Part shown: piece by piece, positions 40,081-63,378 of the stretch | How positions within the stretch are numbered: position 1 is the stretch's first letter | How the letters are laid out: every line of letters begins with the position of its first letter | From: a phage | Length of the DNA stretch: 64,000 bases | Direction: 5' to 3' (one strand) | Assembly: GCA_025677605.1 (NCBI GenBank) | Contig: GCA_025677605.1_4110.1 | The notes under the pieces: model-generated | Told to the model about the DNA's origin: nothing | What the model saw: the letters and a program-made list of their open reading frames with translations, nothing else | Database searches by the model: none | Position numbers and translations under genes: made by a program

Positions 40081-40109
40081 ATTCTAACACTCTACATTAC
40101 TAATGTCAA
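40081..40109 (-). promoter_or_regulatory. sigma70-type promoter TTGACA-N17-TAGAAT
   Basis: Read on the minus strand in the 82-nt gap upstream of 39501..40049, immediately downstream of a terminator. Confidence 0.65.
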
Positions 40110-40116
40110 CCTATAA

Positions 40117-40143
40117 ACGAAAAAAGACCCATCAGGGTCTTTT
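40117..40143 (-). terminator. intrinsic terminator overlapping the stop of 40132..40683
   Basis: Minus strand reads AAAGACCC-TGAT-GGGTCTTT followed by TTTCGTTT. The TGA stop lies in the loop. Confidence 0.8.
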
Positions 40144-40683
40144 AAATGCTCGTAAGTCTCTCAGAATGTTTGGTAGAGTGCCTTGTTCCATTACAGAATT
40201 CAGTACATTAAGATCCATTGTAAGATAGAAACCATCAGGGATGTAATCACGCACTAACTTATCCAACTCAATGATATCCATTGTTAACTGATCATATAGA
40301 GTACTGTACTGGAAAAGCACCCCATCGTCAACATTTAAATCTATTAAGTTATCACCGTGATTGCATTGGCAAAAGTTATTAGCAAGATTTTTATGTTTAA
40401 TGCTGCTTATGTACACATATGGATAACGTGTGAGTACACGATTCTGTGCCTCCGAACAACCATCTGCAATTTCTTCATCTGATAACTCAGGGTGCAAAAG
40501 AAACAATGAACTATCACTAATGTACAAAGTACCTATAGAACCGTTTTTATTATTACTGTGTCGAATATAACATGAACCAAGATTTGATATAGGTTTTATA
40601 TCTTGTAGTACAATAGGAAAAAAGTTAATAATAACTTTAGATAGATCTTTTAGTACTGGGTTTATTGTTAATGGTAGACTCAT
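40132..40683 (-). CDS. family B (FQxS) protein
   Basis: DDGVLFQYSTLYD. Confidence 0.65.
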   Translation of the reverse strand: MSLPLTINPVLKDLSKVIINFFPIVLQDIKPISNLGSCYIRHSNNKNGSIGTLYISDSSLFLLHPELSDEEIADGCSEAQNRVLTRYPYVYISSIKHKNLANNFCQCNHGDNLIDLNVDDGVLFQYSTLYDQLTMDIIELDKLVRDYIPDGFYLTMDLNVLNSVMEQGTLPNILRDLRAFKRP

Positions 40684-41312
40684 TTCATTATCCTTGAACC
40701 GCCTATATAGGTATCGTTAAAATAATTATCATTTTCAAACGCCATGTTATTCAAATCAGCAAGGTCATCGAAGTAACCGCCTTCAATACATATTTCTTTG
40801 AATACGTCACTGTACTTGAATAAATTTACTAAACTAAAGGTAATGTCTGCTCTTTGAACTTTAGTACATTTAAGGTGCTCATGTAGATATGGGAAAACAA
40901 TAGTATATAATAAATCATTCGGTTCATATATTAAACTATTTTGAAAGAATGATTCTTCTGAATAATCCATAACATTGAGGTTCAATCTAAGTACCTCATT
41001 ACTATCCAGTACTAATGTTTTATCTGACAAATCGAAGTTCAAGCAGTGCGTATAAAATGGTCCCAAATTACCAACTCTATTTTTATCTAAACCACTAGGA
41101 CTGAAATCAAGCCATACTTCATTCAACTCACTATCATCTGATTCTATGTACTCAAGAACATTGTTATGAAAACGCATGTCATAACATTCAAGGAACTTAT
41201 CATCCTTCAGACGTGGTAATATGTCCGTTAATGCTCGTGCATACGCAATGCAGTGCTTATACTCTAGGCGATGAAAAACGTACTTTGAAATTGGTTTTCT
41301 TTTTGTACTCAT
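40680..41312 (-). CDS. family B (FQxS) protein
   Basis: SEESFFQNSLIYE. Confidence 0.65.
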   Translation of the reverse strand: MSTKRKPISKYVFHRLEYKHCIAYARALTDILPRLKDDKFLECYDMRFHNNVLEYIESDDSELNEVWLDFSPSGLDKNRVGNLGPFYTHCLNFDLSDKTLVLDSNEVLRLNLNVMDYSEESFFQNSLIYEPNDLLYTIVFPYLHEHLKCTKVQRADITFSLVNLFKYSDVFKEICIEGGYFDDLADLNNMAFENDNYFNDTYIGGSRIMK

Positions 41313-41316
41313 TCAA

Positions 41317-41931
41317 TTAATCTCCAATTGTACATATGTTTTCTTCAGTAATACTTTTTAATTTAAGTAATAAACCATCCCAGTCCTGTTCTTTGAATAT
41401 TTCAGGTTCTAATTTGATATACTTTGTTAATGGTAATTTAGGGGATAGATTTTTACAAAATTTAATAGCATCAATAACACAGGCGTTGTGAATTAATGAG
41501 TACTGAAACAATGTTTCGTCGAGTACATCATCATCTGGAATATCCAGAAATTCAGGTTCATGTGTTGTGACATAGTATTCTTCTTCTTCATCCATATCAA
41601 TGTAGACTTTATTAAGATAATTAAGTCCAGATGAACTAATAAAAATACCATCGCTTCTTGAGATACAAATATAAGAACTGGGCATATATATATCTAAATC
41701 TCTTTCTCTGTTGTGGTCGGTCAATTCTGTTCTTACGCAGATGATAGCTTTACAATTTTCATCCATTAAATCAAACCATTTGTCACCACGGTCAAATTTG
41801 TATGTAGAATTTTGTTCAGTACTGGTATGAAATGAAATAACACGATTTGTTAGACGCCATGCAAATTCATGAATACGAATTAGTTCTAAACTTATCTGAC
41901 TAATTTTATCTATTGTTTCGTTTGTCAGCAT
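41317..41931 (-). CDS. family B (FQxS) protein
   Basis: LDETLFQYSLIHN. Confidence 0.65.
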   Translation of the reverse strand: MLTNETIDKISQISLELIRIHEFAWRLTNRVISFHTSTEQNSTYKFDRGDKWFDLMDENCKAIICVRTELTDHNRERDLDIYMPSSYICISRSDGIFISSSGLNYLNKVYIDMDEEEEYYVTTHEPEFLDIPDDDVLDETLFQYSLIHNACVIDAIKFCKNLSPKLPLTKYIKLEPEIFKEQDWDGLLLKLKSITEENICTIGD

Positions 41932-42412
41932 TTTTTAAAATCCTTACTTGTTTAATAAAGTGCTTCATTGAAGCAAATTCAAAACTAATTCTCTGAAACT
42001 CACTATATTTTTTAAAGTACGATAGAATAAACATAGCTTTAAGTTCAGAGTCATTGTAAATTAATGAATTTTGGAAATAATTTTCATCCGTTAAATCCGT
42101 AATGTACGGAAGTATATGATTAATAAATTGGGCTTTTCCTCTTTGGTGTGAAATATATTTTATATCAGAACCATCTGAACGAAATAGAATATAGTCTGTT
42201 TTACCTTTCTCAAACATAGAATGAGCCAGACGATCTTCAGCTTTAGTATGAAAATATATACTATGAGCACCGTGACGAATATTGAAAGACGATTCAGTAC
42301 TGTGATGGATAGCGAAATATCTATGCAAATTAACTTCATTAACGTACAAATAAGTTATTGTATCAAGACAATCCTTTGCGAACTTTATTAGTTCTGATAG
42401 TTTCCTCGACAT
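41906..42412 (-). CDS. family B (FQxS) protein
   Basis: TDENYFQNSLIYN. Confidence 0.65.
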   Translation of the reverse strand: MSRKLSELIKFAKDCLDTITYLYVNEVNLHRYFAIHHSTESSFNIRHGAHSIYFHTKAEDRLAHSMFEKGKTDYILFRSDGSDIKYISHQRGKAQFINHILPYITDLTDENYFQNSLIYNDSELKAMFILSYFKKYSEFQRISFEFASMKHFIKQVRILKNADKRNNR

Positions 42413-42421
42413 ATAGCACCT

Positions 42422-42892
42422 TTATAAATGTTCCAAAAATGTATTAAAGAAATCCAAATCAATATAAAAGGAATTAAGTCCTTCGCTTCTTAAGTATGTT
42501 ACAATCACAGATAGTAAAAGTATATTACTTGTATATAATAATGAGTTTTGAAAGTACATCTCTTCATTACATATTTCAATATATGAAGGTAATACTTTAA
42601 AATCACTGTCATGAACACAAATTTTATCAAGGTATGAATGGTACTGAATATAATAGTAATCAAAGCTCATGAATGATTCATTATCACACACTGATTCCCC
42701 TATGTTTAAAACTTCAGTACCAGCGTAATACCATGCATTATGAGTATTTGATTTTTCAAACACTTTGTCAAATTTACCATTATTACCAGCATGATAAATC
42801 TTCATCAAAATCTTTGCAAAATCAATACACGCCGCATATGAATCGTATCGGATAACGTGACCATCCAGTACTAACTCGTCGGATTCTATCAT
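42422..42892 (-). CDS. family B (FQxS) protein
   Basis: CNEEMYFQNSLLYT. C-terminal SFYIDLDFF. Confidence 0.65.
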   Translation of the reverse strand: MIESDELVLDGHVIRYDSYAACIDFAKILMKIYHAGNNGKFDKVFEKSNTHNAWYYAGTEVLNIGESVCDNESFMSFDYYYIQYHSYLDKICVHDSDFKVLPSYIEICNEEMYFQNSLLYTSNILLLSVIVTYLRSEGLNSFYIDLDFFNTFLEHL

Positions 42893-43371
42893 AGAGAAAG
42901 TTCCTCTGCAAGTAATTCCTCAATAAGTTCAAGATGTACTAAATCCAGATAGAAAGCACTGGCATTTACACTATTGAGATATGAATACAACATTATAGCA
43001 CGAACTGTTTCTTCTGTATAGATCAAAGATAACTGAAAGTGCGTCTCTTCAGTAGGCTTATAAGAACCTATATTATCAAGTACAATTGTCTCTTCCTCCC
43101 ATTGGAAGTAACATACAAGTGTATTCCCTGGGGTAAAGGTCATGTACAAATCCATTAGATTGTATTCTGAATCATCATAAATCGTAGCGTAGATGGCCTC
43201 TCTTTTGGATTTGAATGTAGGTAGTTTTATGACAAATGAACTTTTATCACAGCTTTTAATCTTATCGACATATGAACGCTTTTGGAACTCAGTACTTTCC
43301 ATTATAAGATGAATTTTGTAAATCTTTTTTGCAAAATCAATATCTTCCTGGAATGTCATTAATCTCTCCAT
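42889..43371 (-). CDS. family B (FQxS) protein
   Basis: TEETHFQLSLIYT. C-terminal AFYLDLVHL. Confidence 0.65.
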   Translation of the reverse strand: MERLMTFQEDIDFAKKIYKIHLIMESTEFQKRSYVDKIKSCDKSSFVIKLPTFKSKREAIYATIYDDSEYNLMDLYMTFTPGNTLVCYFQWEEETIVLDNIGSYKPTEETHFQLSLIYTEETVRAIMLYSYLNSVNASAFYLDLVHLELIEELLAEELSL

Positions 43372-43790
43372 TTTTTTCCTGGGAAATGCTTATCGTAGAA
43401 CTCATCATCACTAAGCATATAATCAGGAATTTCTCTTTCGATCTTTAAAAACTCTACATTAGTTGAAAAATATTCAGGGCTAGACTTAGGCACAAAGTCC
43501 ATTAAACCCTCCTGAATCTTCTTGAGAAGGTCAATATCACCACGGTAAGGACATACTAAGCTGTACTGAAATAGCTCGTCAGGTGGCATTACAGCGAGAT
43601 TCTCAATGTCATATTGTGAGTTATCTTTGTGAGAATAGATATAGAATTTATTCTCCGGTACTGGTTGTGTTACTTTAGAATAATACAATTCGTTATTATC
43701 ATCCAGCATTACACTATGAGTGCAACCATACGTTTGAAATCTTGTATTAAGTAAAGCCTTTGATTTAACTTTTATAATTTCAAAATACAT
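43359..43790 (-). CDS. family B (FQxS) protein
   Basis: PPDELFQYSLVCP. Confidence 0.65.
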   Translation of the reverse strand: MYFEIIKVKSKALLNTRFQTYGCTHSVMLDDNNELYYSKVTQPVPENKFYIYSHKDNSQYDIENLAVMPPDELFQYSLVCPYRGDIDLLKKIQEGLMDFVPKSSPEYFSTNVEFLKIEREIPDYMLSDDEFYDKHFPGKKWRD

Positions 43791-44128
43791 TAATCCACCT
43801 CAAGTGTAAATTTGTGCATCATAAATGATTTAACCAGAAATAAATCTTTGTGTTTTAGTTTCTGAAGAGACTCCAACAAAATATTCTGTACATCTAATAA
43901 TTCGTATACATCATATTCAAATGCAGTGCTCATTTGAAATAGTTCTTCTTCACTTAAATTGTAAAGAAGTTCCAAATTCGTATCTTTATGTTTAGTAGAA
44001 ATAAAAGATACAATGGATTCATCCTCTTCTACAGAGAAGATAACCCAATGTCCAGCCTTGCATTCTTTTTGGACAATAAAAATTTCATCACCATCGTGCA
44101 TGTACTCAATATCAACTACTTTTCCCAT
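43790..44128 (-). CDS. family B (FQxS) protein, short form
   Basis: SEEELFQMSTAFE. 112 aa. Confidence 0.65.
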   Translation of the reverse strand: MGKVVDIEYMHDGDEIFIVQKECKAGHWVIFSVEEDESIVSFISTKHKDTNLELLYNLSEEELFQMSTAFEYDVYELLDVQNILLESLQKLKHKDLFLVKSFMMHKFTLEVD

Positions 44129-44615
44129 TTAGATATCCCTTGCATACTTCAAAATCATTCAAATCAAAATAGAAGTCAGTTTCAATTTCATGCTTATATC
44201 GGAGAAAACCGTAGAGTGTTATGACATTCAATACCAACATATTCATAGTAGTACTGAACTGAAAGTAATCTTCTTCAGAAATTAGTTTTACATCTTCTTC
44301 CTTGATACTACTCTTTTTATTACGACCATTTTCATCACGTAAATCTACTACAACTTCACCTTCTTTTGAGTAAGATAGGTAATTCATGCCTACACTATAT
44401 TCACTATCATCAAATGATTCACAGAAGATTTCCATCATTTCGCCTGATTTCTGTGTATATGTTAAACAACTTTTCCTATCCCTGTTAAGACTCTTTTTTC
44501 GAGAATACATTGAACCAAATGCTGTAGTATTGTTCTTGAATTCATCATAGATTTCGTAGATATCTTTTGCGTACTGTTCAATCTCATCGTAATTAAGTTT
44601 GCTAATATCAGGCAT
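44112..44615 (-). CDS. family B (FQxS) protein
   Basis: SEEDYFQFSTTMN. C-terminal DFYFDLNDF. Confidence 0.65.
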   Translation of the reverse strand: MPDISKLNYDEIEQYAKDIYEIYDEFKNNTTAFGSMYSRKKSLNRDRKSCLTYTQKSGEMMEIFCESFDDSEYSVGMNYLSYSKEGEVVVDLRDENGRNKKSSIKEEDVKLISEEDYFQFSTTMNMLVLNVITLYGFLRYKHEIETDFYFDLNDFEVCKGYLNGKSS

Positions 44616-45112
44616 TACAATTCTCCTACACGATTAATATGATCCAACATGATATCATAATCACTAAGGTCAAAGTAAAATTGGGCATCTGGTGGTAATT
44701 TTTTATGCAATTCAGATATTGCAGTTAATGCAAAAACCACATCTTCTGAATAGATTGTGCAGTACTGAAAGTATTCACACTCATCATTGATATCAATGAG
44801 ATCTATCTCTTCGCACTCCAAAAATTCTTTATAAAAACGAAGAGTACCTTTCGCTTTCGCATTGAATCCAAAGAATGACGAACCAAGAATTCTGACATTA
44901 TTATGTGCTTCAACTTTGCTGTATAACATATGCATACGAAATGACAGGATACTGGATACCTGTACTGTATCGGTAAACATTTCACCACTTTTGGGGTCCA
45001 CATATGTAACGTCAAAATTAGTTTCAACATCTCTTAAAAAGTTATGAATGCGAATTAAATTGTCTGCAAAAGTTATAGCATTACTGTATGAGAGTTCAGG
45101 ATTGAATTGCAT
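44615..45112 (-). CDS. family B (FQxS) protein
   Basis: NDECEYFQYCTIYS. C-terminal QFYFDLSDY. Confidence 0.65.
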   Translation of the reverse strand: MQFNPELSYSNAITFADNLIRIHNFLRDVETNFDVTYVDPKSGEMFTDTVQVSSILSFRMHMLYSKVEAHNNVRILGSSFFGFNAKAKGTLRFYKEFLECEEIDLIDINDECEYFQYCTIYSEDVVFALTAISELHKKLPPDAQFYFDLSDYDIMLDHINRVGEL

Positions 45113-45143
45113 GATATGATCCTTTTCGTATTAGATGAAAAAG

Positions 45144-45172
45144 ATTATATCATGCACAGAAGGAGGTGTCAA
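45144..45172 (-). promoter_or_regulatory. perfect-consensus sigma70 promoter TTGACA-N17-TATAAT
   Basis: Read on the minus strand. The -35 overlaps the stop of 45169..45705. An AAGGA SD and the ATG of 44615..45112 follow about 30 nt downstream. Confidence 0.7.
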
Positions 45173-45705
45173 GATGGATTACGAACAAAATTCCAAATTA
45201 GATCGTAAAAAGTAAGGTCAACATAAAAAGGAGGGAAGTTATTCTGTTTAAGCCAAGAGAACATGAATTGTACACCAACTATGTACGGGTCGTCAACAGT
45301 ACTCATCTGAAAGAACAGTTCTTCGGTAAGTTCTTCTTCTATAAATGGTATAACAATGTCTGCCTCTTCATAAAAGAACTTTATTCTGTCATAGTCAGGT
45401 GAATAACTTAAAAAGCCACCGCTGTATTTTGGATCATATTCAGGGTCATTAAATTTGTTGATATTGAACATATCAACACTGTACCCGTCATCATCCAGAC
45501 CTCTTGAACGAATACTGAAGTAATCATAACTTGAATCAATAAATCTGTCAGATTTTACCCAAATAGAAGTCTCTCTGTTATTACAAATGAACTCATGGAT
45601 TTGCATAAGATCTTGAGCAGTACTGCGAGCGTGTTCAAAAGTGTCAACCTTTAAATGGTGAGTACCGTCCCAATCATCTTTCTCTATTCTGTCATAATCT
45701 AACAT
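45169..45705 (-). CDS. family B (FQxS) protein
   Basis: TEELFFQMSTVDD. C-terminal PFYVDLTFY. Confidence 0.65.
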   Translation of the reverse strand: MLDYDRIEKDDWDGTHHLKVDTFEHARSTAQDLMQIHEFICNNRETSIWVKSDRFIDSSYDYFSIRSRGLDDDGYSVDMFNINKFNDPEYDPKYSGGFLSYSPDYDRIKFFYEEADIVIPFIEEELTEELFFQMSTVDDPYIVGVQFMFSWLKQNNFPPFYVDLTFYDLIWNFVRNPS

Positions 45706-45707
45706 AA

Positions 45708-46046
45708 TTAAACCTCTTTGTATTGGACAATAAATTCCAGTTCTCTTTGTAGTTCACATGGATAGTTATTCATTATATCTTTCATTAGTTGTTGATACTT
45801 AAATAACTTTTCAATATCTACAATTCTATTATACTCCCATACTAATGATTCCTGAAATAACTCTTCTTCACTATAATCACTGTAATCAAAAATATGAAAT
45901 ACATCTCGTGCTAAATTATTAGTGATTATCTTGAACATATTCTTTTCATATGTAAGATAATAAAAATGTTCTTTCTTGTGGTTATAACCTAACTCAATCA
46001 TTACATAGTACTGATGTTTGGCTATAGTAACTTTAACTAAATCCAT
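45708..46046 (-). CDS. family B (FQxS) protein, short form
   Basis: SEEELFQESLVWE. 112 aa. Confidence 0.65.
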   Translation of the reverse strand: MDLVKVTIAKHQYYVMIELGYNHKKEHFYYLTYEKNMFKIITNNLARDVFHIFDYSDYSEEELFQESLVWEYNRIVDIEKLFKYQQLMKDIMNNYPCELQRELEFIVQYKEV

Positions 46047-46414
46047 CAGTACTCAACCTCTACATGAATAGATTCAGGAAACTTAGTCATATGATCTTCT
46101 GGATAGTTCTGCATTGCTTTGATCATCTCTACCTGTGTAGCACGGACGTATTCAATTGGTGCTCCTGGTAAATCCCAAACTGTACTTTCCTGAAAGAATT
46201 CCTCTTCTGACAGTACTGTAAGATTTACAAAATCATTACGATAATTTTTTGAATCATCATATGTGAAGATTTTAAAAGACCCATTTTCATATAGTACAAG
46301 AACAAAATGGGAGAATTTTTGTAATGCATCAAACCTTTCCACGACCGCATGATTCAGTGTACAAATGACCTCTTTTTTCCTCATACCGAATTGGATTCTA
46401 ATTTCTTTTTTCAT
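46046..46414 (-). CDS. family B (FQxS) protein, short form (start trimmed)
   Basis: SEEEFFQESTVWD. The ATG at 46414 forms an ATGA overlap with the upstream stop. Confidence 0.6.
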   Translation of the reverse strand: MKKEIRIQFGMRKKEVICTLNHAVVERFDALQKFSHFVLVLYENGSFKIFTYDDSKNYRNDFVNLTVLSEEEFFQESTVWDLPGAPIEYVRATQVEMIKAMQNYPEDHMTKFPESIHVEVEY

Positions 46415-46989
46415 AAAATCTCCTTCAGATGAGTACAAAATTTGTACAGTATATTGCAATCCGCAATGTACAATAACTCAAGAATTTTGGAATTCTGAAA
46501 TTCCTTACACAGAACATTAGAACTGTATACTGATGCTGAATCCACATTCATAATCAAATCCTGTTGGAATGCAACATCAGTACTTGGATTGAGATCCACA
46601 TCTTGTACTGCACCTTTATTATAAAATGAAGTACCTGTGCCTAAATTCTTACCCAATCCAATAATGAAAGAAGTACTGGAATTTAATGTAAGTTGATACA
46701 GATTGCTTCTTACATCGTAGAAGAAACGATTTAAATCACGATCAATCTTGAAATCATCATTGCATTTAATCAAATCACGCTTTGACATATATGGTTTAAT
46801 ATACATAAAGTTCACACCATTATATGAAAGCTCACATTCTTTTTGTGTTTTATTAAATGATTTAACTAAATCACGAAATGTAGAAGGTGATTGACTCAGT
46901 ACTGTATCGTAATAATATTCAGCAGTACTGATGAGTAGCTTAGCTTTCTCGTGAATATCAAATGTGGAAGTTTTGTTTAAATTGATCAA
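46411..46989 (-). CDS. family B-like protein (start uncertain; TTG proposed)
   Basis: STDVAFQQDLIMN. The TTG at 46989 lies 7 nt after GGAG. The ATGs at 47007, 47031 and 47061 lack an SD and overlap the upstream gene more. Confidence 0.5.
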   Translation of the reverse strand: MINLNKTSTFDIHEKAKLLISTAEYYYDTVLSQSPSTFRDLVKSFNKTQKECELSYNGVNFMYIKPYMSKRDLIKCNDDFKIDRDLNRFFYDVRSNLYQLTLNSSTSFIIGLGKNLGTGTSFYNKGAVQDVDLNPSTDVAFQQDLIMNVDSASVYSSNVLCKEFQNSKILELLYIADCNILYKFCTHLKEIL

Positions 46990-47506
46990 TTCTTCTCTCC
47001 ATTTCATCAATACAAGTATCAATGTCTTCATAATTTGCATATACAAATACAGGAGCATCATCCCTTAAACGAAGGATATTCCACAAAGAAATACCAAACA
47101 CTTCAATATCATTGTGCACTGTACTTAACTGAAAAACACTTTCTTCATTAATTTCAAGGTGTGGTAAATCTATGTGTTTGTCAACATCACTCAACGATGT
47201 AACATCAACTGCACTCGCTCCTGCATTAAAAGTATTCAGTACTGTCGAATCTTTTCTGTACACTAATCCATACAATTCCCCATTGTTATGGGTGCACATA
47301 GATAATTTTCCATTTGTTTCAGGAACAGAACCGAACTTAATAAGTGTTCGGCCTGAAGATCTGAAAGACATATACGTCATGTAATCGTGTTGTGAAACAT
47401 CTAGCTCACTACGGGCAAGTATACGCTCATCTTGCAGTACTACTTCCGTCAATTTGGTTAGTGTACTTAACTTATTTGCAAAAGAAATTATCTCATCATA
47501 GGTCAT
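46958..47506 (-). CDS. family B (FQxS) protein
   Basis: NEESVFQLSTVHN. Confidence 0.65.
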   Translation of the reverse strand: MTYDEIISFANKLSTLTKLTEVVLQDERILARSELDVSQHDYMTYMSFRSSGRTLIKFGSVPETNGKLSMCTHNNGELYGLVYRKDSTVLNTFNAGASAVDVTSLSDVDKHIDLPHLEINEESVFQLSTVHNDIEVFGISLWNILRLRDDAPVFVYANYEDIDTCIDEMERRIDQFKQNFHI

Positions 47507-48670: not shown

Positions 48671-48704
48671 TTCATGTGCACCTTTTGAATTAATATTACT
48701 GTGC

Positions 48705-48732
48705 ATTGTAACACAGTACAGGCTCTTGTCAA
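48705..48732 (-). promoter_or_regulatory. sigma70-type promoter TTGACA-N16-TACAAT
   Basis: Read on the minus strand in the 36-nt gap between 48743..49189 and the next gene. Confidence 0.5.
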
Positions 48733-48742
48733 TAGCATGAAC

Positions 48743-54385: not shown

Positions 54386-54393
54386 TACCAAAA

Positions 54394-56624: not shown

Positions 56625-57013
56625 TTAATAGGGTATTCCGTTTCATTCACTACATACGACATAATCCATCCGTAATGGATAGGATGATATTTGTCTGAAT
56701 CAGGAATAAAATATAAAGCTGTACTGGGATTATAACTGAAGAAATCCCTCTCGTCAAATGTTAATCTGGCTAACTTAATTTTCCTTGGAATTGCATGAGG
56801 ACGAACTGCATTCTTTACACAGAATATACCATCTTTGTATTTTGGTTCGATAACACCCAATGCACTCTGGATTAACTCCTGAAAGACTAAATTGATTTGT
56901 GCAAATGAATCCTTGTTGTTATGCATTTCGTGCCATAAATCTCGTCTTGCATTTAACATCATTATTACTGGTCTAAGATCCTGTACTATTGTTAGATTCT
57001 GCATTGTATTCAT
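56612..57013 (-). CDS. hypothetical protein (133 aa)
   Basis: ORF-track ORF. Confidence 0.55.
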   Translation of the reverse strand: MNTMQNLTIVQDLRPVIMMLNARRDLWHEMHNNKDSFAQINLVFQELIQSALGVIEPKYKDGIFCVKNAVRPHAIPRKIKLARLTFDERDFFSYNPSTALYFIPDSDKYHPIHYGWIMSYVVNETEYPIKWER

Positions 57014-57230
57014 TTATCTCATTCTGTAACTTAACAACCAAAATTTGCGTATGAATTTTTCGCTCAAGGTGCTTGATAAATTTCTGTACCATTTCTTCTT
57101 GTACTGATGTACCAAGATAAAATAACATATTAAATTCTGATAATCGCAGAGCAAAATCTTCATCGCCCCCCTGTAAACAAAAATCCCTGTACTTCGATGC
57201 GTACAAATGATGGTTTACATTTTTGTACAT
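56973..57230 (-). CDS. family C (LGTNYQ-like) small protein
   Basis: FYLGTSVQEEMVQKFIKHL. Confidence 0.55.
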   Translation of the reverse strand: MYKNVNHHLYASKYRDFCLQGGDEDFALRLSEFNMLFYLGTSVQEEMVQKFIKHLERKIHTQILVVKLQNEINEYNAESNNSTGS

Positions 57231-57433
57231 TTAGACTCCTTTGGTGTGCATACTATCTCTGTTCGTAAAGCCCTTATGTATGCATCAACGAATTGTGGCT
57301 GTGCTCTCGTTCCTAGATAAAATAATAAATCGAACTCTGCCATTTTAACATTAAAAGGATCTGAATCTACATTTCGAATAAACTGTCTGTACTTCAATTC
57401 ATATCCGTTAGGCATCTTCTTGTATACTATCAT
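57215..57433 (-). CDS. family C (LGTNYQ-like) small protein
   Basis: FYLGTRAQPQFVDAYIRAL. Confidence 0.55.
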   Translation of the reverse strand: MIVYKKMPNGYELKYRQFIRNVDSDPFNVKMAEFDLLFYLGTRAQPQFVDAYIRALRTEIVCTPKESKCTKM

Positions 57434-57743
57434 ATTCTATACAATCACCTCTTTTAATCGAATCCCAAACTTCTTTCATCCTCTTCTGTAAACTGCACAT
57501 AATATCTATATCAAACATATAAGGGTCATGAATTAGACTGTACTGAAATAATTCATCTTCCTGCATAAGAGAAAGATCCTGAAGCAACTCGTACTTACCT
57601 AAACTCCTGGGACTCAAATAAGCAAAATATTCTTTACCGTCCTCAAAAACATAATGTACTTCATGATTCATGTACTTCTTGTAATTCTCATGCGTATAAG
57701 CAAATATACAACCGGAATTAATTCGGTGAATGTTGAATTTCAT
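57408..57743 (-). CDS. family B (FQxS) protein, short form
   Basis: QEDELFQYSLIHD. 111 aa. Confidence 0.65.
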   Translation of the reverse strand: MKFNIHRINSGCIFAYTHENYKKYMNHEVHYVFEDGKEYFAYLSPRSLGKYELLQDLSLMQEDELFQYSLIHDPYMFDIDIMCSLQKRMKEVWDSIKRGDCIEYDSIQEDA

Positions 57744-57752
57744 ATTAATCTC

Positions 57753-58079
57753 TTATACGTAAATTGGATGAATATTTTGAAGGAAATGCTTAGAAATATT
57801 CATACATGATATCATCTGCCTTTGTACTTCCTTCATCTCTTTGTATGTCAACCCAAAAGAATCATCGTATACTAACATGTACTGAAACTCTTCTTCTTCA
57901 GAGATATCAACTAGATTCGGTACTGCTATCGTATTTTCATATGATTTGATACCTTCTACCCAATAGAAACAATTATCAACTTTATTGTACTCAAATATCT
58001 TAACCCCAGGCCCACCCTGTACATTGGTCAACGCAATGAAACATGTATTCGCTCTTTTTATACAATTGATCTTACGCAT
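57753..58079 (-). CDS. family B-like protein, short form (start trimmed)
   Basis: SEEEEFQYMLVYD. The ATG at 58079 (MRKINCIKR...) has GGAG upstream and avoids overlap with 58087..58332. Confidence 0.6.
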   Translation of the reverse strand: MRKINCIKRANTCFIALTNVQGGPGVKIFEYNKVDNCFYWVEGIKSYENTIAVPNLVDISEEEEFQYMLVYDDSFGLTYKEMKEVQRQMISCMNISKHFLQNIHPIYV

Positions 58080-58086
58080 TATCGCA

Positions 58087-58332
58087 TTATCTCCATCTCT
58101 CTCCGTCATCGCAAGAGTACTGGTACGTTGTCGTTAGGGTAGGAATCATGTTCGTAATCGGCATATTATTCACAATAACCGTTACGGGCATCATAACCGT
58201 CTCTTTTCTACTCTGTCCTGTCTTTGTGCAATTCATCTTGTGCATTTCATCTGAATCCAGATACGCTAATACAAACGGTGCAATCCCAAGAACAATACAC
58301 AAGACGATAAGGAAATTTAAAAATTTTAACAT
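58087..58332 (-). CDS. small membrane-anchored protein (81 aa)
   Basis: N-terminal TM helix LNFLIVLCIVLGIAPFVLAYL. Confidence 0.55.
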   Translation of the reverse strand: MLKFLNFLIVLCIVLGIAPFVLAYLDSDEMHKMNCTKTGQSRKETVMMPVTVIVNNMPITNMIPTLTTTYQYSCDDGERWR

Positions 58333-58361
58333 AATCTGTACCCTATGATTAACGTTAGTGT

Positions 58362-58390
58362 ACTATAGCACTACAATAGAGTACTGTCAA
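58362..58390 (-). promoter_or_regulatory. sigma70-type promoter TTGACA-N17-TATAGT
   Basis: Read on the minus strand. The -35 lies in the last codons of 58371..58601 and the -10 in the 38-nt gap. Confidence 0.55.
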
Positions 58391-58601
58391 CTGCTTTGTT
58401 CTCTATTATACTCATTAAACCCCAAATTAGATAACGAACACTATCAGCTTGATAGTTAGTACCTACTGTGCATTTTAAAATTAACTCATCTTTCAGTACT
58501 GCACGTTCTTCTTGGGATATAGGAAGAGAATTTATTTGTTTTATTTGTGGTTGTAAAGTATTAATAAGCTTGCAGTACTCTTCGAATGATAATCTTTTCA
58601 T
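58371..58601 (-). CDS. family C (LGTNYQ) small protein
   Basis: CTVGTNYQADSVRYLIWGL. Confidence 0.6.
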   Translation of the reverse strand: MKRLSFEEYCKLINTLQPQIKQINSLPISQEERAVLKDELILKCTVGTNYQADSVRYLIWGLMSIIENKAVDSTLL

Positions 58602-58604
58602 GGT

Positions 58605-58946
58605 TCAGTACTCAATAATGTGTTCTTCATAAGCACTATTAGGCTCCTGTTTAGTTTCTTTTATTAGTACTATCATCTTATGTGCCAATGGCATAGGAAA
58701 CTCTAAATCCCATACTAATGATTCTTGAAAGTATTCTTCTTCAGATAAAGTACTTAAATCTTCAATGTCAATGTGTTCGTACATGTTATATTTGTAATCA
58801 GCAAAAGATATATAAAAACCTCTTGTAGAATCGTAAGTAATCGTGAATGGCTTACCTTTGTAGTCCATTACATCTTTACATAGACTGCATTTGATATATG
58901 TACTTGCAAATGATTTATAAACCTTAAGTTGAATATTAGTTTTCAT
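58605..58946 (-). CDS. family B (FQxS) protein, short form
   Basis: SEEEYFQESLVWD. 113 aa. It sits between family C genes. Confidence 0.65.
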   Translation of the reverse strand: MKTNIQLKVYKSFASTYIKCSLCKDVMDYKGKPFTITYDSTRGFYISFADYKYNMYEHIDIEDLSTLSEEEYFQESLVWDLEFPMPLAHKMIVLIKETKQEPNSAYEEHIIEY

Positions 58947-58948
58947 TT

Positions 58949-59170
58949 TTAAACACCTATTCCATTAGCAATAGCAGTACTTAACGCTAACAAATACTTC
59001 TGTACTGCTTGCTCTTGATGATCTGTACCTAAAAGTATATACACCCATAATTCACTGTAGTGTACATCTTCTGTATAAGGGTTGTTGTAACTTTTTGATA
59101 ATATAGCATCAAATTCAGATGCATGAACCCTTGTGAACTTAAGAATATCTTGTTGTGTTATGATTCTCAT
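58949..59170 (-). CDS. family C (LGTNYQ) small protein
   Basis: ILLGTDHQEQAVQKYLLAL. Confidence 0.6.
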   Translation of the reverse strand: MRIITQQDILKFTRVHASEFDAILSKSYNNPYTEDVHYSELWVYILLGTDHQEQAVQKYLLALSTAIANGIGV

Positions 59171-59382
59171 AGCTTTTCCTGTATAAGCTTCTTAAGTATT
59201 TCTATGTGTGAATTAACAGTTCTTTCTTGATGCTGTGTTCCTAAGAGTATCAGTACTATCATCTCTGAACGCAAAAGATTTTTTTCAAGTTCCCCTATAT
59301 CAGTTCTTGTATCAAGTACTAAAAATTTGTGATTATTCTTTCTGAATAGTTCTAAGTACTCTTGATTTGATATTGTCTTCAT
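59167..59382 (-). CDS. family C (LGTNYQ) small protein
   Basis: ILLGTQHQERTVNSHIEIL. Confidence 0.6.
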   Translation of the reverse strand: MKTISNQEYLELFRKNNHKFLVLDTRTDIGELEKNLLRSEMIVLILLGTQHQERTVNSHIEILKKLIQEKL

Positions 59383-59609
59383 AGTTTATCCCTGATGCCA
59401 TTTAAAAGTGCTCTAATATGCTCCTGTACGAATTTGTACTGACTGTCTGTTCCTAGAGTGAGTAACAATCTTAAATCTGAACTTTTGATATGATATTCTA
59501 AATCATTATTTGATTCTTGCCTCAGTTTCTGAAAGGATGAGAAGTTTGCTGCCATTAGTTCAATGTATTCTGCTGTTCCTAGGGGTTTGTGTATGTGCTG
59601 TCTGTGCAT
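59379..59609 (-). CDS. family C (LGTNYQ) small protein
   Basis: LTLGTDSQYKFVQEHIRAL. Confidence 0.6.
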   Translation of the reverse strand: MHRQHIHKPLGTAEYIELMAANFSSFQKLRQESNNDLEYHIKSSDLRLLLTLGTDSQYKFVQEHIRALLNGIRDKL

Positions 59610-59815
59610 TTTAATTGTATTACCCTTTTAAGTGTATTAATATAATCCACGATGATGTGTTCTTGATAGTTAGTTCCTATAGTAGCTAGAACATAGATTT
59701 CACTTATTAGAATATTTTTTTCATCCTGTGATAATTCTTCTGACCAGCTACGATGCAACTTTGGAATTAAACTACTTAATAGTTGGTTGTATTCAGTAGG
59801 TGAAATGATTTTCAT
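59579..59815 (-). CDS. family C (LGTNYQ) small protein
   Basis: ATIGTNYQEHIIVDYINTL. Confidence 0.6.
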   Translation of the reverse strand: MKIISPTEYNQLLSSLIPKLHRSWSEELSQDEKNILISEIYVLATIGTNYQEHIIVDYINTLKRVIQLKCTDSTYTNP

Positions 59816-60027
59816 TTACATCTTCTCAGTACTGATTCTTTAAGTTCATCGATGTAGTCCTCAACAAATTGTTCTTGTAGGTTTGTTCCGAGATGTAACA
59901 GTACTCTTAAATCTGCTCTAAGTACTTCTTTGTCATCTTCATCTATATCAGACAGTGATATGTTTAAGAATTTACTTGAATTCTCTATAAGTAATATTAC
60001 TTCATCACCTTCGCTTAAAATTTTCAT
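59812..60027 (-). CDS. family C (LGTNYQ) small protein
   Basis: LHLGTNLQEQFVEDYIDEL. Confidence 0.6.
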   Translation of the reverse strand: MKILSEGDEVILLIENSSKFLNISLSDIDEDDKEVLRADLRVLLHLGTNLQEQFVEDYIDELKESVLRRCK

Positions 60028-60239
60028 AATCTTTGTGTTTTCCTCGACAGTAGGTACAGGTAACGTTCAGTGCATTGTTCTTGATAGTTTGTTCCTAATA
60101 AATGAACTAATTGTTGTTCAGCTATAGAAAGCTGTTTATCTTCATAACAAGCGTATCGTTGTTTCCTATGGTATTCTTTATTGATAACATCAAGGATGAT
60201 AACACCGTATTCGTCATCTGTCAAGTGTTTCATGTGCAT
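60024..60239 (-). CDS. family C (LGTNYQ) small protein
   Basis: HLLGTNYQEQCTERYLYLL. Confidence 0.6.
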   Translation of the reverse strand: MHMKHLTDDEYGVIILDVINKEYHRKQRYACYEDKQLSIAEQQLVHLLGTNYQEQCTERYLYLLSRKTQRL

Positions 60240-60471
60240 TTCTTTTTCTTATATGTTTAGTTAAAAGGTATATTAGTTTTCTTACGTACTCGTCTTGATA
60301 GTTAGTCCCTAATAGTGCAAGAAGTTTTGCTTCAACTAAAGCTAATTGTCGTTCTTCAAATGTGTGTTCCAGAATGTACTTGGGGTTTGATTTTTTAGAA
60401 ATTGCACTATTAGTCTTCATTATAATCTTATGATATTCATTGACTGTTAAGATTTTTATATATTTGGTCAT
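60214..60471 (-). CDS. family C (LGTNYQ) small protein
   Basis: ALLGTNYQDEYVRKLIYLL. Confidence 0.6.
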   Translation of the reverse strand: MTKYIKILTVNEYHKIIMKTNSAISKKSNPKYILEHTFEERQLALVEAKLLALLGTNYQDEYVRKLIYLLTKHIRKRNAHETLDR

Positions 60472-60691
60472 GTATCTTTTCCTGAATAGTCATTTTAAGA
60501 TATCTAAGAATCGATCGAACATAATACTCCTGTCTATCGGTTCCAAGAAAGTACAGGAGTTGTTGATATAATACTTCTGCACTCCTTGCAGCAGGGGTTT
60601 GATTTGGGTCTTTTGGAAGTTGATTTGTATGTTTTCTGGATTTAATTATTCTTTCTTTTATTTCATCGTCTGTTAAGTATATCATTTGCAT
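60437..60691 (-). CDS. family C (LGTNYQ) small protein (start trimmed)
   Basis: YFLGTDRQEYYVRSILRYL. The ATG at 60691 gives MQMIYLTDDE, matching the sibling N-termini MQMINLS.DEY, and sits in the recurring ATGCAAATGA junction. Confidence 0.6.
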   Translation of the reverse strand: MQMIYLTDDEIKERIIKSRKHTNQLPKDPNQTPAARSAEVLYQQLLYFLGTDRQEYYVRSILRYLKMTIQEKIHDQIYKNLNSQ

Positions 60692-60918
60692 TTTATGTTC
60701 CTCACATGAATTGTTTGGATTAAACATTCAATCCAAGATGTAACATATCTTGTTTGATATTGTGTGCCTAAGAGACTCTGCATTTTAAACTCTGCTTCAA
60801 GTTCATATCTCTTTTCTATCGTAAAGCTTAAATGACCATATTCTGCATCGTATCTTCTCAGTGATTCCCCAATTCTATCAAATCTTTCTGCTAAGTTGAT
60901 GTTATTCACAGTATTCAT
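60682..60918 (-). CDS. family C (LGTNYQ) small protein
   Basis: SLLGTQYQTRYVTSWIECL. Confidence 0.6.
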   Translation of the reverse strand: MNTVNNINLAERFDRIGESLRRYDAEYGHLSFTIEKRYELEAEFKMQSLLGTQYQTRYVTSWIECLIQTIHVRNIKCK

Positions 60919-61178
60919 CGATCAGTACACCTCAGTGGTTGGGTCATTTGATAAAAGTACAGCTTACCTCTGATTTCCATTAACAACTCGGCTATGACGC
61001 GATTTACTTCTGTCTCTTGATAGTTTGTTCCTAAGAAGACACCCATCTTTAACTCACGATGCATAATCATCTTCTTACTGTGTTGAATTTCTTGGCTGTA
61101 ATAGATTGCATTACGTTTAGGTGAGATTTTTGCTAGTCGCTCGTTATATTCATCTTGACTTAAATTAATCATTTGCAT
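60915..61178 (-). CDS. family C (LGTNYQ) small protein
   Basis: VFLGTNYQETEVNRVIAEL. Confidence 0.6.
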   Translation of the reverse strand: MQMINLSQDEYNERLAKISPKRNAIYYSQEIQHSKKMIMHRELKMGVFLGTNYQETEVNRVIAELLMEIRGKLYFYQMTQPLRCTDR

Positions 61179-61393
61179 TTACTTTGGACCTCATTTTGAA
61201 GTGCATTAATGACCTTCAGTACAGCACTCGCTTGATAGTTTGTTCCTAAGACTGAAAGCATCTTGATCTCATTTACTACAATCCACTTATTTGATTGTTC
61301 AATAATGTGACTTTCATAAATGGCCTTGCGTAATGAATAAGTTTTTGCAAGACGTACATAATATTCATCTTTACTTAAATTAATCATTTGCAT
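61169..61393 (-). CDS. family C (LGTNYQ) small protein
   Basis: SVLGTNYQASAVLKVINAL. Confidence 0.6.
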   Translation of the reverse strand: MQMINLSKDEYYVRLAKTYSLRKAIYESHIIEQSNKWIVVNEIKMLSVLGTNYQASAVLKVINALQNEVQSKCK

Positions 61394-61602
61394 TTACTTT
61401 TAACCTCTTTCTGGAGTGCATCAATCCATAGGTCTATATACGTTTGTTGATAGTTTGTGCCTAAGAGTGCCTCTACATAGAGTTCAGCTACCTTTGCGTG
61501 CTTTAGGTCAACAGGGATGCTCTTATCGCTTGATAACATTCTCCTTCTGCTGGTGCATGTTTTCAGAAGCCTGATGTATTCAACACCTTGTAATTTTCTC
61601 AT
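61384..61602 (-). CDS. family C (LGTNYQ) small protein
   Basis: ALLGTNYQQTYIDLWIDAL. Confidence 0.6.
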   Translation of the reverse strand: MRKLQGVEYIRLLKTCTSRRRMLSSDKSIPVDLKHAKVAELYVEALLGTNYQQTYIDLWIDALQKEVKSKCK

Positions 61603-61814
61603 TCTCTGGATATCACCTTGTTACGTAGACTTGCTAACCATGCGTCAGTATAGATGTTTTGATAGTTTGTCCCAATGAAGATAGATAGCTTCATTTCAGT
61701 TATTATAACACATTTGTCCACTTGTGCAATAGATTTGTTTAAAGAAATACTAGAAACTTTTGCTTGTATAGTTCGCAACAGCCTGTAATATTCATACCCA
61801 CTAAGGATTTTCAT
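61599..61814 (-). CDS. family C (LGTNYQ) small protein
   Basis: IFIGTNYQNIYTDAWLASL. Confidence 0.6.
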   Translation of the reverse strand: MKILSGYEYYRLLRTIQAKVSSISLNKSIAQVDKCVIITEMKLSIFIGTNYQNIYTDAWLASLRNKVISRE

Positions 61815-62061
61815 TCTCTCGTCTCCAGACTTCCGTTCTTATATGTTGTTGATATGCTTCCAGATAGTTCTCTATTGCCTTAGAGATTGTTTGTGTATCG
61901 TCGCCCGTCATCAGTACAAGCATCTCTGCTTCACAGTGTATAAGTCTGCTAATATCATTAGTGAGTTTATCAGATACCGTATCATAGTGTTTGTGGATTA
62001 GTTTCTGAAATAGTTTAACGTACATAATGTGATTTATTCTGGATCGCATTGTCTTTTCCAT
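61801..62061 (-). CDS. family C-like small protein (divergent core)
   Basis: VLMTGDDTQTISKAIENYL at the equivalent position. Confidence 0.5.
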   Translation of the reverse strand: MEKTMRSRINHIMYVKLFQKLIHKHYDTVSDKLTNDISRLIHCEAEMLVLMTGDDTQTISKAIENYLEAYQQHIRTEVWRRENENP

Positions 62062-62285
62062 TCTCTTTTGGCCTGTCGGGTTTTATACGCTACAAGGTTT
62101 CTTAGTGCATTGATATAACGATCAGTGAAGATATCTTGTTTATTAGTTCCAACGAATTTAAGAAGAAACACGTCACCATTAACTACATCATTCTCAGGGG
62201 AAGGATAAAGTTCATTGTTCTTGCGAAGGGTGTTTAGTAAAGAGAATAGGGCAGATTGATACTCAGTGCTTGATAATACTTTCAT
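62034..62285 (-). CDS. family C (LGTNYQ) small protein
   Basis: KFVGTNKQDIFTDRYINAL. Confidence 0.6.
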   Translation of the reverse strand: MKVLSSTEYQSALFSLLNTLRKNNELYPSPENDVVNGDVFLLKFVGTNKQDIFTDRYINALRNLVAYKTRQAKREWKRQCDPE

Positions 62286-62509
62286 TAGTTCATTCCCTTT
62301 CTTTCTATATGTTTCATAAGAACATTAAGATACTCACCCACAAACCTATTCTGATACTGCGTCCCCATGAATTCAAACAGCCATACTTCAGCAACCATTT
62401 CTTCAATTTCATTCCAAGATAAGTACATCATAGTGAAGTAAATGTGGTTCTCTTTTTGAGATGCACTCCTTGAGCGAGCCTCGTATTCAAAGTTATTAAT
62501 GCAGTTCAT
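62285..62509 (-). CDS. family C (LGTNYQ) small protein
   Basis: EFMGTQYQNRFVGEYLNVL. Confidence 0.6.
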   Translation of the reverse strand: MNCINNFEYEARSRSASQKENHIYFTMMYLSWNEIEEMVAEVWLFEFMGTQYQNRFVGEYLNVLMKHIERKGMN

Positions 62510-62718
62510 AGTTTACTCCTGATGTATTTCTCAAGAGCTATTAGATACTCTTGGACATAAGATTTCTGGTGGTCAGTTCCTAAGAAGACACCCAGAAGTA
62601 ATTCTTTTTCCATAACTTTTGATAAGTATACATCATCCCTGTCTGCATATATCAGCAAGATTTCAATCTGCTTAGAATTGTAACGTTTCCTATATTGCTC
62701 TGGTGTTAATATAATCAT
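62506..62718 (-). CDS. family C (LGTNYQ) small protein
   Basis: VFLGTDHQKSYVQEYLIAL. Confidence 0.6.
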   Translation of the reverse strand: MIILTPEQYRKRYNSKQIEILLIYADRDDVYLSKVMEKELLLGVFLGTDHQKSYVQEYLIALEKYIRSKL

Positions 62719-62924
62719 AGTTTACTCTTTATATCTTCAATTAAAAATCCAATACAATCATTGACATACTCTTCCTGAAAGTTAGTCCCCAGTACAGCCA
62801 ACATGCGATACTCTGCTGACCTTATCGCTCTTTCAGTTTTTGGTAAGTTACGTGGTATAGTTACCATCAATTCAAGATACTCCACCATACGACTCAATGC
62901 TTGTCTTTGTGTTATAGTTTTCAT
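62715..62924 (-). CDS. family C (LGTNYQ) small protein
   Basis: AVLGTNFQEEYVNDCIGFL. Confidence 0.6.
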   Translation of the reverse strand: MKTITQRQALSRMVEYLELMVTIPRNLPKTERAIRSAEYRMLAVLGTNFQEEYVNDCIGFLIEDIKSKL

Positions 62925-63121
62925 AATTTACACCTCGCTCGTATGTCAGCTTTCAAAGATTCCAAATAGTGCGTTACCCACACTTCCTGATAGTTGGTTC
63001 CCATCGTAATCAACAGGTACAACTCAACTCTTTCTAAGTGCACATTGCTTTGGTAAATCCTTGCCGTGTTTTTACGTAGTATATGATGATATTCATCTTG
63101 GGTTAATGTACGCATTTTCAT
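62921..63121 (-). CDS. family C (LGTNYQ) small protein
   Basis: ITMGTNYQEVWVTHYLESL. Confidence 0.6.
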   Translation of the reverse strand: MKMRTLTQDEYHHILRKNTARIYQSNVHLERVELYLLITMGTNYQEVWVTHYLESLKADIRARCKL

Positions 63122-63315
63122 AGTTTACCATTTATCTCTAAACATAACTCTTTTACATATAGTTTAACATATTCATTTTGTAAGTTAGTTCCTAAGAATA
63201 GTTCCATAACTAATTCACGTTTATAGGCATTACCACGTTTATGAGACTTATACATTATCATAGCCATGTTATTGATAAGTCTTTCGTGATGCTCTTCTTG
63301 TGTTAAAATACGCAT
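63118..63315 (-). CDS. family C (LGTNYQ) small protein (first gene of the array)
   Basis: LFLGTNLQNEYVKLYVKEL. Confidence 0.6.
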   Translation of the reverse strand: MRILTQEEHHERLINNMAMIMYKSHKRGNAYKRELVMELFLGTNLQNEYVKLYVKELCLEINGKL

Positions 63316-63340
63316 AGGGCAAATTCCATAGGTTCATATA

Positions 63341-63375
63341 TGAAAAAACATCATACCCCATATGAGGCATGATGT
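63341..63375 (-). terminator. intrinsic terminator after 63382..63966
   Basis: Minus strand reads ACATCATGCCTC-ATAT-GGGGTATGATGT (12-bp stem including G.U pairs) followed by TTTTTTCAT. Confidence 0.75.
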
Positions 63376-63378
63376 CAA
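63350..63378 (-). promoter_or_regulatory. sigma70-type promoter TTGACA-N17-TATGAT at the head of the family C array
   Basis: Read on the minus strand. It is superimposed on the terminator hairpin (-35 at the 5' foot, -10 in the 3' arm) and lies about 35 nt upstream of the first family C ATG. Confidence 0.5.

Follow-up and report, generated by a model that had tools for sequence, protein, structure and literature searches.

Gene organisation and paralogue arrays

The 64,000-nucleotide (nt) stretch of phage DNA analysed here (contig GCA_025677605.1_4110.1 of assembly GCA_025677605.1, hereafter the window) belongs to an Asteriusvirus (121Q/PBECO4-type) jumbo coliphage, and the gaps between its small genes carry the near-consensus sigma70-type promoter sites that are the subject of this work. 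Escherichia phage A4 (ON286972, Asteriusvirus, 355.5 kb) matches a 6-kb and a 24.5-kb stretch of the window at 98–99% identity; other 121Q/PBECO4-type jumbo coliphages match at 82–86% identity over only 15–38% of the query. All credible genes lie on the minus strand, with counterparts A4_300 to A4_462, and transcription therefore runs from position 64000 towards position 1. Transfer of the A4 annotation to the window, supplemented with curated open reading frames (ORFs) in the gaps, yielded a map of 149 genes that leaves 2,475 intergenic bases (3.9% of the window).

The arrays of paralogous genes described in an initial annotation of this DNA are present. A family of ~70-amino acid (aa) proteins has 22 members at 56973–63315 and one more at 47913–48140. 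There are also several families of ~160 aa, one of them with six members scattered over 40680–50577, and several smaller families besides. The only PHROGs matches of the array proteins are to families without an assigned function (phrog_4148, phrog_9317, 12674 and 28680), and a Pfam search of these proteins gave no match. The proposed role of the array families in host takeover or anti-defence is thus without support.

Near-consensus promoter sites between the genes

Nine clean near-consensus sites, scoring 10–15.5 bits, were identified between genes, six of them with a perfect TTGACA −35 box. Those six had been tabulated in the initial annotation, and their coordinates, strand, hexamers and spacers were all confirmed. 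Like the genes, they and the further sites catalogued below lie on the minus strand. Promoter 63378 (63350–63378; TTGACA-17-TATGAT, without TGn) heads the run of ~70-aa paralogues; its first gene starts at 63315 and the predicted leader is ~28 nt. In promoter 58390 (58362–58390; TTGACA-17-TGnTATAGT) the −10 box is separated by 30 nt from the start codon at 58332. The start codons served by promoter 54385 (54357–54385; TTGACA-17-TGnTAATAT), promoter 48732 (48705–48732; TTGACA-16-TGnTACAAT), the full-consensus promoter 45172 (45144–45172; TTGACA-17-TGnTATAAT) and promoter 40109 (40081–40109; TTGACA-17-TGnTAGAAT) lie 27 nt (54330), 35 nt (48670), 32 nt (45112) and 32 nt (40049) downstream, respectively. 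A terminator–promoter cassette at 38047–38087 (promoter 38075; TTGACT-N17-TGnTATTAT), with a start codon at 38018, 29 nt downstream, falls outside the range covered by the initial annotation. Two further intergenic promoter candidates are TGGACA-16-TGnTATAAT at 27867–27894 (start codon 27835, 32 nt downstream) and TAGACA-16-TGnTATAAT at 3149–3176 (start codon 3113, 36 nt downstream).

A perfect TTGACA had been claimed for every sizeable gap, which proved too broad: between 40000 and 64000, eight gaps measure 38 nt or more, and six of these have one. Gap 53104–53165 is instead associated with a weaker promoter candidate, TTGAAG-16-TGnTATAAT at 53165–53192, and the 213-nt gap 51788–52000 had no match of at least 10 bits in the weight-matrix scan. 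The candidate at 53192 is followed by a 55-nt leader containing GCAATAACAT three times. This direct repeat (53110–53165, minus strand) has one unit fewer in A4, and its copy number therefore varies among near-identical phages.

The earlier table also leaves out equally good minus-strand matches within genes or at gene ends, at 60196–60224, 55313–55342, 53560–53587, 54558–54587 and 56729–56757. Site 60224 (60196–60224; TTGACA-17-TGnTATCAT) is a candidate internal promoter in the coding sequence of the paralogue array, where a function is less certain; TTGACA-17-TAnnnT is retained there in the relatives G17, JP4 and BF17 at ~78% local identity. Site 55342 (55313–55342; TTGACA-18-TGnTATTAT) lies in the 3′ end of the upstream gene, 34 nt from an alternative start codon at 55279, and both of its hexamers are conserved in relatives. 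These two conserved sites appear to be the best candidates for internal promoters. Other strong intragenic matches on the minus strand include 35856–35884, 30385–30413, 23443–23471, 15828–15855 and 4842–4870. The G17 record has annotated terminators and no annotated promoters.

Enrichment, geometry and conservation of the sites

The two strands of the window together contain 22 occurrences of the pattern TTGACA-N16–18-TAnnnT, and 20 of these are on the minus (coding) strand; dinucleotide shuffles gave 6.5 ± 2.7, with a maximum of 14. Matrix counts were made with a sigma70 weight matrix at a cut-off of at least 12 bits, with TGn and the upstream A-tract left unscored. Seven sites with an intergenic −10 box reached this cut-off, compared with 0.24 ± 0.49 when the intergenic segments were shuffled (0 of 500 shuffles reached 7), and 23 coding-strand sites lay within genes, compared with 4.9 ± 2.3 when codons were permuted within genes (0 of 300 reached 23). 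The plus strand held three sites in all. Such sites were ~7.6 times as dense between genes (2.8 per kb) as within them (0.37 per kb); the possibility raised in the initial annotation, that equally good matches are just as frequent in coding sequence, therefore fails to refute the promoters. A loose scan (at least 9 of 12 consensus positions) gave 110 matches against 110.2 expected at 44–64 kb and 120 against 109.4 at 24–44 kb, which is at the level of chance, so that enrichment is confined to the near-consensus class. Matches to at least 11 of 12 positions in the interval 24–64 kb were on the minus strand in 13 of 13 cases.

The same bias extends over the A4 genome, where the coding strand carries 179 sites of at least 12 bits and the opposite strand 26. 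Such sites are dense at 1–70 and 280–340 kb, which hold small hypothetical genes, and sparse at 140–280 kb, which holds structural and replication genes. For the pattern TTGACA-N13–15-TGnTAnnnT, 12 of 25 sites in A4 fall within 20–70 kb. Upstream of the window in the direction of transcription, A4 1–19600 contains ~55 very small genes with gaps of 60–100 nt between them, and the 10–20 kb bin, with 18 sigma70-like matches, is the densest cluster in the genome. A4 1–19600 is probably the most promoter-rich immediate-early stretch.

Elements that did not contribute to the score were also present. Of the seven intergenic sites that reached 12 bits, six have a TG dinucleotide at −15/−14. Among the A4 hits TGn is found in 28% genome-wide and in 50% at 20–70 kb, against a dinucleotide background of 7.5%, and A makes up 48–56% of positions 5–9 upstream of the −35 box, against 34% overall (A4 genome-wide). 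The geometry is likewise constant: at all nine clean intergenic sites the end of the −10 box lies 27–36 nt from the next start codon, corresponding to predicted leaders of 20–29 nt, and site 55342 obeys the same spacing if the gene starts at 55279.

For a phylogenetic footprint, six sites were compared with their counterparts in G17, BF17 or JP4, relatives that are ~80–90% identical. None of 36 −35 box positions had changed. At −10 box positions 1, 2 and 6 there were 0 changes in 18, and at positions 3–5 there were 4 in 18. Overall, 0 of 54 critical hexamer positions differed, compared with 31 of 108 spacer columns (Fisher P = 9e-7). At promoter 58390, 7 of 17 spacer bases are different while the hexamers and TG are retained; at promoter 63378, BF17 has both hexamers and a single spacer change. 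Site 54385 keeps its −35 box and TG in JP4 and BF17, where +2/−2 indels preserve the 17-nt spacer and the −10 box reads TATCAT. Spacer indels at site 45172 give 18 nt in relatives, and promoter 48732 is present only in A4 among the relatives examined. This pattern indicates purifying selection on the hexamers and spacing of the intergenic sites. The excess over background, TGn, the A-rich stretch, the constant geometry and the footprint all bear out the proposal that the intergenic matches look like sigma70 promoters.

Fusion of terminators and promoters

The initial annotation had paired several of these promoters with an immediately preceding intrinsic terminator. This holds for promoters 40109 and 54385. 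A terminator at 40114–40143 on the minus strand (9-bp stem 40122–40143 followed by a T-run; −12.5 kcal/mol, z = −4.33) lies directly upstream of promoter 40109, and one at 54394–54425, also on the minus strand (11-bp stem 54400–54425 followed by a T-run; −14.9 kcal/mol, z = −4.06), directly upstream of promoter 54385. It does not hold for promoters 45172 and 58390, which have no upstream terminator, or for promoter 48732, as the hairpin at 48697–48718 lacks a T-run. The terminator described as superimposed on promoter 63378 was found at 63341–63376 (minus strand; 13-bp stem 63347–63376 followed by a T-run; −18.6 kcal/mol, z = −5.15). Of the promoter elements, GACA from the −35 box falls within the 5′ arm of this hairpin and the −10 box within the 3′ arm. 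Transcription is predicted to start past the hairpin, in the T-run, and a new transcript should therefore escape termination. In the cassette of promoter 38075 the stem (38062–38087, minus strand, followed by a T-run; −15.5 kcal/mol, z = −4.56) has TTGACT in its loop and 3′ arm, so that terminator and promoter are interleaved. Promoters 63378, 54385, 40109 and 38075 are thus joined to a stable T-run stem-loop, and promoters 58390, 48732 and 45172 are not.

Between two of the terminator–promoter cassettes, at 38092–39504 on the minus strand, lies a gene for a 470-aa protein with a methyl-accepting chemotaxis protein (MCP) signalling domain (Pfam MCPsignal, E = 6e-37, residues 281–434), a domain that is unusual for a phage.

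The sites and terminators define a series of predicted transcription units. The first would run from promoter 63378 through ~22 genes, from 63315 down to 58371, with a possible internal promoter at 60224, and the second from promoter 58390 through the genes from 58332 down to 54411, with internal promoter 55342 and an end at terminator 54400–54425. Promoter 54385 would serve genes from 54330, the weaker candidate 53192 genes from 53103, and promoter 48732 genes from 48670. The unit of promoter 45172 would comprise the genes from 45112 down to 40132 and end at terminator 40122–40143, that of promoter 40109 would begin with the gene at 40049 and end at terminator 38062–38087, and promoter 38075 would serve genes from 38018.

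The best reading of the terminator–promoter units, by analogy, is that they match the architecture of the promoter-early stem-loop (PeSL) cassettes of T4-like phages, a correspondence that the initial annotation missed. The name PeSL was given by Arbiol, Comeau and Krisch. Promoter and terminator activity of PeSLs has been measured with reporter fusions (PMC2839356; PMC4122927). Like the PeSLs of the phage pairs RB49/phi1, PST/T4 and nt-1/KVP40, the units are intergenic and combine a sigma70-type promoter with an AT-rich stretch, a stem-loop terminator and a Shine–Dalgarno (SD) sequence, and the PeSLs of RB49/phi1 carry a near-perfect TTGACA-N17-TATAAT (PMC2839356, PMC4122927). They also share the setting of a hyperplastic region rich in small ORFans, as relatives cover just 15–38% of 39.5–64 kb at 82–86% identity, and some units lie at indel or replacement junctions between relatives. 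The differences are that only 4 of ~10 promoters here have a terminator, that the hairpin is interleaved with the promoter in two cassettes instead of lying upstream, that the copies have almost no common sequence beyond the hexamers, that there is no polyG/polyC stem, and that breakpoints show no significant association with the cassettes when tested against a gene-junction null.

A predicted hairpin over the start region of promoter 45172

At promoter 45172 a 19-bp hairpin (45108–45156, minus strand; fold of −21.5 kcal/mol, z = −6.8) pairs the −10/start-site region with the SD sequence and AUG of gene 44615–45112. It can form solely in RNA read through from upstream: the computed pairing probability over the SD-to-AUG segment is 0.93 in read-through RNA and 0.37 in RNA that begins at the promoter's own start. 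Because the 5′ arm lies upstream of that start site, only promoter-proximal transcripts should be translatable, and the hairpin may thus gate translation of gene 44615–45112. An equivalent hairpin occurs in G17, BF17 and JP4 despite a different downstream gene.

Promoter-embedded hairpins restrict translation of the T4 genes e, soc, 49 and I-TevI to transcripts from internal promoters. The likeness lies in the sequestering of the SD sequence and AUG within the hairpin. The T4 internal promoters, however, are late promoters that impose a temporal gating, whereas the promoter here is of sigma70 type and there is one clear example only.

Probable reading of the sites by the host polymerase

We consider it probable that the intergenic near-consensus sites are functional, strong immediate-early promoters of the UP/−35/TGn/−10 type that are read by the host sigma70 polymerase. 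Early in infection, Escherichia coli RNA polymerase with host sigma70 would initiate at these sites, which would split the minus-strand block of small genes, paralogue arrays included, into units of ~2–5 kb, each beginning 20–29 nt upstream of its first start codon. Where a terminator is fused to the promoter, it would halt transcription arriving from upstream while the adjoining promoter starts a fresh transcript. Recognition by the sigma70 holoenzyme, early timing and the efficiency of the terminators are points that we infer rather than observe directly.

The A4 annotation contains no RNA polymerase gene, and no homologue of Alt, AsiA or MotA; it does list a gp55-like late sigma factor (A4_588) and a sigma70-family protein (A4_181). 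In the related phage PA5oct, sensitivity to rifampicin is complete and the blocks of small genes are transcribed first (PMC7318152). T4 early promoters are "uber" promoters of the UP/−35/TGn/−10 type, which out-compete host promoters for the sigma70 holoenzyme (PMC2988021). It is because of this T4-like anatomy, the behaviour of PA5oct and the lack of an annotated polymerase gene in A4 that we read the sites as immediate-early and as targets of the unmodified host holoenzyme.

The likeness to T4 early promoters extends to the near-consensus −35 and −10 boxes, TGn and an A/T-rich upstream element, to the dense placement on the coding strand of small-gene blocks (non-essential in T4), and to the absence of TATAAATA, the T4 late-promoter box, from the region (PMC2988021). 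The initial annotation had seen no TATAAATA in the gaps; in fact the box is missing from both strands of the entire 64 kb, where 12.1 ± 3.3 copies would be expected. A4 has 13 in 355 kb, with none on the coding strand between 1 and 90 kb and three in the portal/capsid region, and avoidance of this box fits with the gp55-like late sigma factor annotated as A4_588. T4 early promoters are known to be read by unmodified host sigma70 holoenzyme (PMC2988021), which is deduced here. They differ from the present sites in the −35 box, which is the E. coli TTGACA here and TTTACW in the PST/T4 pair (PMC4122927), and T4 differs from A4, for which no Alt, AsiA or MotA homologue is annotated.

A similar arrangement has been predicted in Rak2-like jumbo phages of the same clade. 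In CBB, RpoD-like promoters with UP-like elements over short hypothetical ORFs were proposed to mark the early region (PMC5259590), and late genes carry an ATAAATA-type motif (PMC5259590; PMC7318152). CBB, GAP32 and PA5oct share with the window a sigma70 consensus behind a UP-like element and in front of short hypothetical ORFs; the promoters in those phages, however, are MEME predictions made without conservation or background tests. No such promoter analysis was found in the literature for Asteriusvirus. Host-type early promoters have therefore already been predicted for related phages, and the layout is the expected one for T4-related phages.

Several observations weigh against recognition of these sites as host-read early promoters. 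By absolute number, most of the strong matches are inside genes (23, against 7 between them). Sites 40331 and 54587 both contain TTCCAGTACAGTAC, which looks like a conserved coding motif of the paralogues and not a promoter; given strong intragenic matches, some of them conserved coding motifs, the motif alone is not diagnostic of a promoter. Two sizeable gaps are without a good match, site 63378 lacks TGn, and the −10 box of site 54385 is weak (TAATAT). The sites used for the footprint had been selected as near-consensus, which biases that comparison slightly towards conservation. A literature search found no 5′-end, time-course or in vitro transcription data for Asteriusvirus. Finally, the phage itself encodes the sigma70-family protein A4_181, and host sigma70 is therefore not the sole candidate reader.

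Alternative explanations

The sites could be read by A4_181 acting on the host core polymerase, which would make them middle-phase promoters. A4 does encode this 320-aa sigma factor, with regions 2 and 3 and a weak region 4, and a phage-encoded RpoD-like sigma factor is a hallmark of this group of jumbo phages (PMC11895373). Its regions 2.3–2.4, the part with which host sigma70 recognises the −10 box, are however strongly diverged, with the principal-sigma sequence TYATWWIRQ aligning to TYATTSVYM, and region 4 falls under the Pfam threshold, the alignment ending before the −35 recognition helix. With such divergence in regions 2.3–2.4 and 4, A4_181 is an unlikely reader of the sites. A perfect E. 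coli consensus combined with TGn and a UP-like element is, moreover, what competition for the host holoenzyme predicts, and the second promoter class of CBB and GAP32 (−35 TGAAACG) would be a more natural target for a phage factor (PMC5259590). That class, as TGAAACG...TAnnnT, is rare in A4, with eight matches on the coding strand, and is uninformative here. We therefore regard the middle-phase explanation as improbable.

Alternatively, the cassettes might be chiefly recombination linkers, similar to PeSLs, that drive gain, loss and exchange within the paralogue arrays, with promoter activity secondary. Homology to relatives starts at the exact first base of the −35 box of promoter 58390, the match to BF17 stops 5 nt upstream of the −35 box of promoter 63378, the terminator and promoter at 54334–54423 form an isolated homology island of 47–92 nt, and G17, BF17 and JP4 retain the 45172 cassette with other genes on either side of it. 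Three or four cassettes are clear examples of a position at an indel or replacement junction. Breakpoints lie nearer to cassettes than under uniform placement (P = 0.02–0.04), but this excess is lost against the gene-junction null (P = 0.2–0.3). The cassettes also have little in common beyond TTGACA, TG and TAnnnT and would therefore offer far less homology than the PeSLs of RB49/phi1; a comparison of upstream regions did not reveal copies sharing enough sequence to recombine with one another, as PeSLs do. A primary role as linkers is accordingly very unlikely in our estimation. A combined proposal, by analogy, in which the cassettes would be points of gene exchange in the arrays through microhomology of the hexamers and the 45172 cassette would in addition gate translation, is doubtful.

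The idea that the matches are functionless by-products of A+T-rich composition and codon usage draws on the chance-level loose scan, the many strong intragenic matches and the coding motif common to 40331 and 54587, but it is extremely improbable given that near-consensus sites exceed the dinucleotide, intergenic and codon shuffle controls, are strongly strand-biased, carry the unscored TGn and upstream A-tract at a fixed distance from start codons, and keep their hexamers while the spacers diverge; for the intergenic class, the shuffles, the unscored elements and the footprint exclude chance and composition.

Noncoding elements in ORF-free gaps

A 693-nt ORF-free gap at 25500–26192 contains, on the minus strand, a candidate conserved structured RNA of roughly 500 nt. 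Its core spans ~25556–26126, with a 3′ pseudoknot domain at 25714–25806, and covariation was assessed in 32 copies. By BLAST, the element was found at 269 places in 62 jumbo-phage records, with 4–5 places per record listed, in phages of Escherichia, Salmonella, Erwinia, Yersinia, Xanthomonas, Serratia, Cronobacter, Pectobacterium and Klebsiella. In A4 there are exactly four diverged copies, at ~65, 126, 206 and 321 kb; each is on the coding strand within a large gap that is sparsely annotated or unannotated. One copy lies directly downstream of the A4_181 gene, which is outside the window at A4 319937–320899.

For 32 non-redundant copies with a median identity of 65%, RNAalifold predicted 72 base pairs in 16 helices, and 44 of the 72 pairs show compensatory double changes. 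Paired cells amounted to 96.4%, against 37–45% when the 3′ partners were slid by 1–3 columns, double-change cells numbered 394 against 35–59 in the slid controls, and 0 of 500 shuffles attained any of five measures of structure. The pseudoknot joins GUUGC in CGACCGUUGC to GCAAC in ACAGAGCAACCCG, crossing a GAGAG/CUUUC helix; all 32 sequences maintain its pairing, with covariation at three of the five pairs. Frequent G–U pairs make the structure strand-specific and therefore point to an RNA in the gene sense.

Searches of Rfam 15 with the window copy and three cross-genus copies gave no match at the gathering threshold or at E values up to 1, and no tRNA was found in the gap 25500–26192. Neither nhmmer nor a covariance model built on the 3′ domain detected a relation to the four noncoding RNAs of PA5oct defined by RNA sequencing, and a literature search found no description of the structured RNA. 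A group I intron reading found no support, as there was no Rfam match and the flanking ORFs had no family match that would show a split gene. The multi-copy, pseudoknotted RNA looks like a new RNA family. Just upstream of it, at 26176–26203 on the minus strand, a promoter-like sequence with an extended −10 box (AGGACA-16-TGaTATAAT) overlaps a terminator (stem 26148–26172, then T9).

The gap 51788–52000 contains a 170-nt noncoding element (51790–51959, minus strand) that occurs as a single copy, with 91–95% identity across 31 Asteriusvirus genomes. Conservation is far higher in the element than around it, and the flanking genes are non-homologous between phages. The element has a G-run and a distant C-run and no sigma70-type promoter. 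Its fold has a z-score of only −1.6, and variation across the 31 genomes is too low for a covariation test.

Discussion

The promoter analysis newly contributes statistics corrected for background, a footprint in relatives and the recognition that terminators are fused to promoters. The general understanding of phage early transcription is unchanged, its logic having been established for T4 and predicted for related jumbo phages. The result is a coordinate-level map of promoters and terminators for the early region of this Asteriusvirus, which aids the design of 5′-end mapping and supplies strong, compact phage promoters and insulating terminator–promoter units as parts. A more consequential outcome than the promoters is the pseudoknotted, multi-copy RNA, which is absent from Rfam. 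For the phage itself, the map delimits the transcription units that hold its expanded families of unknown genes.

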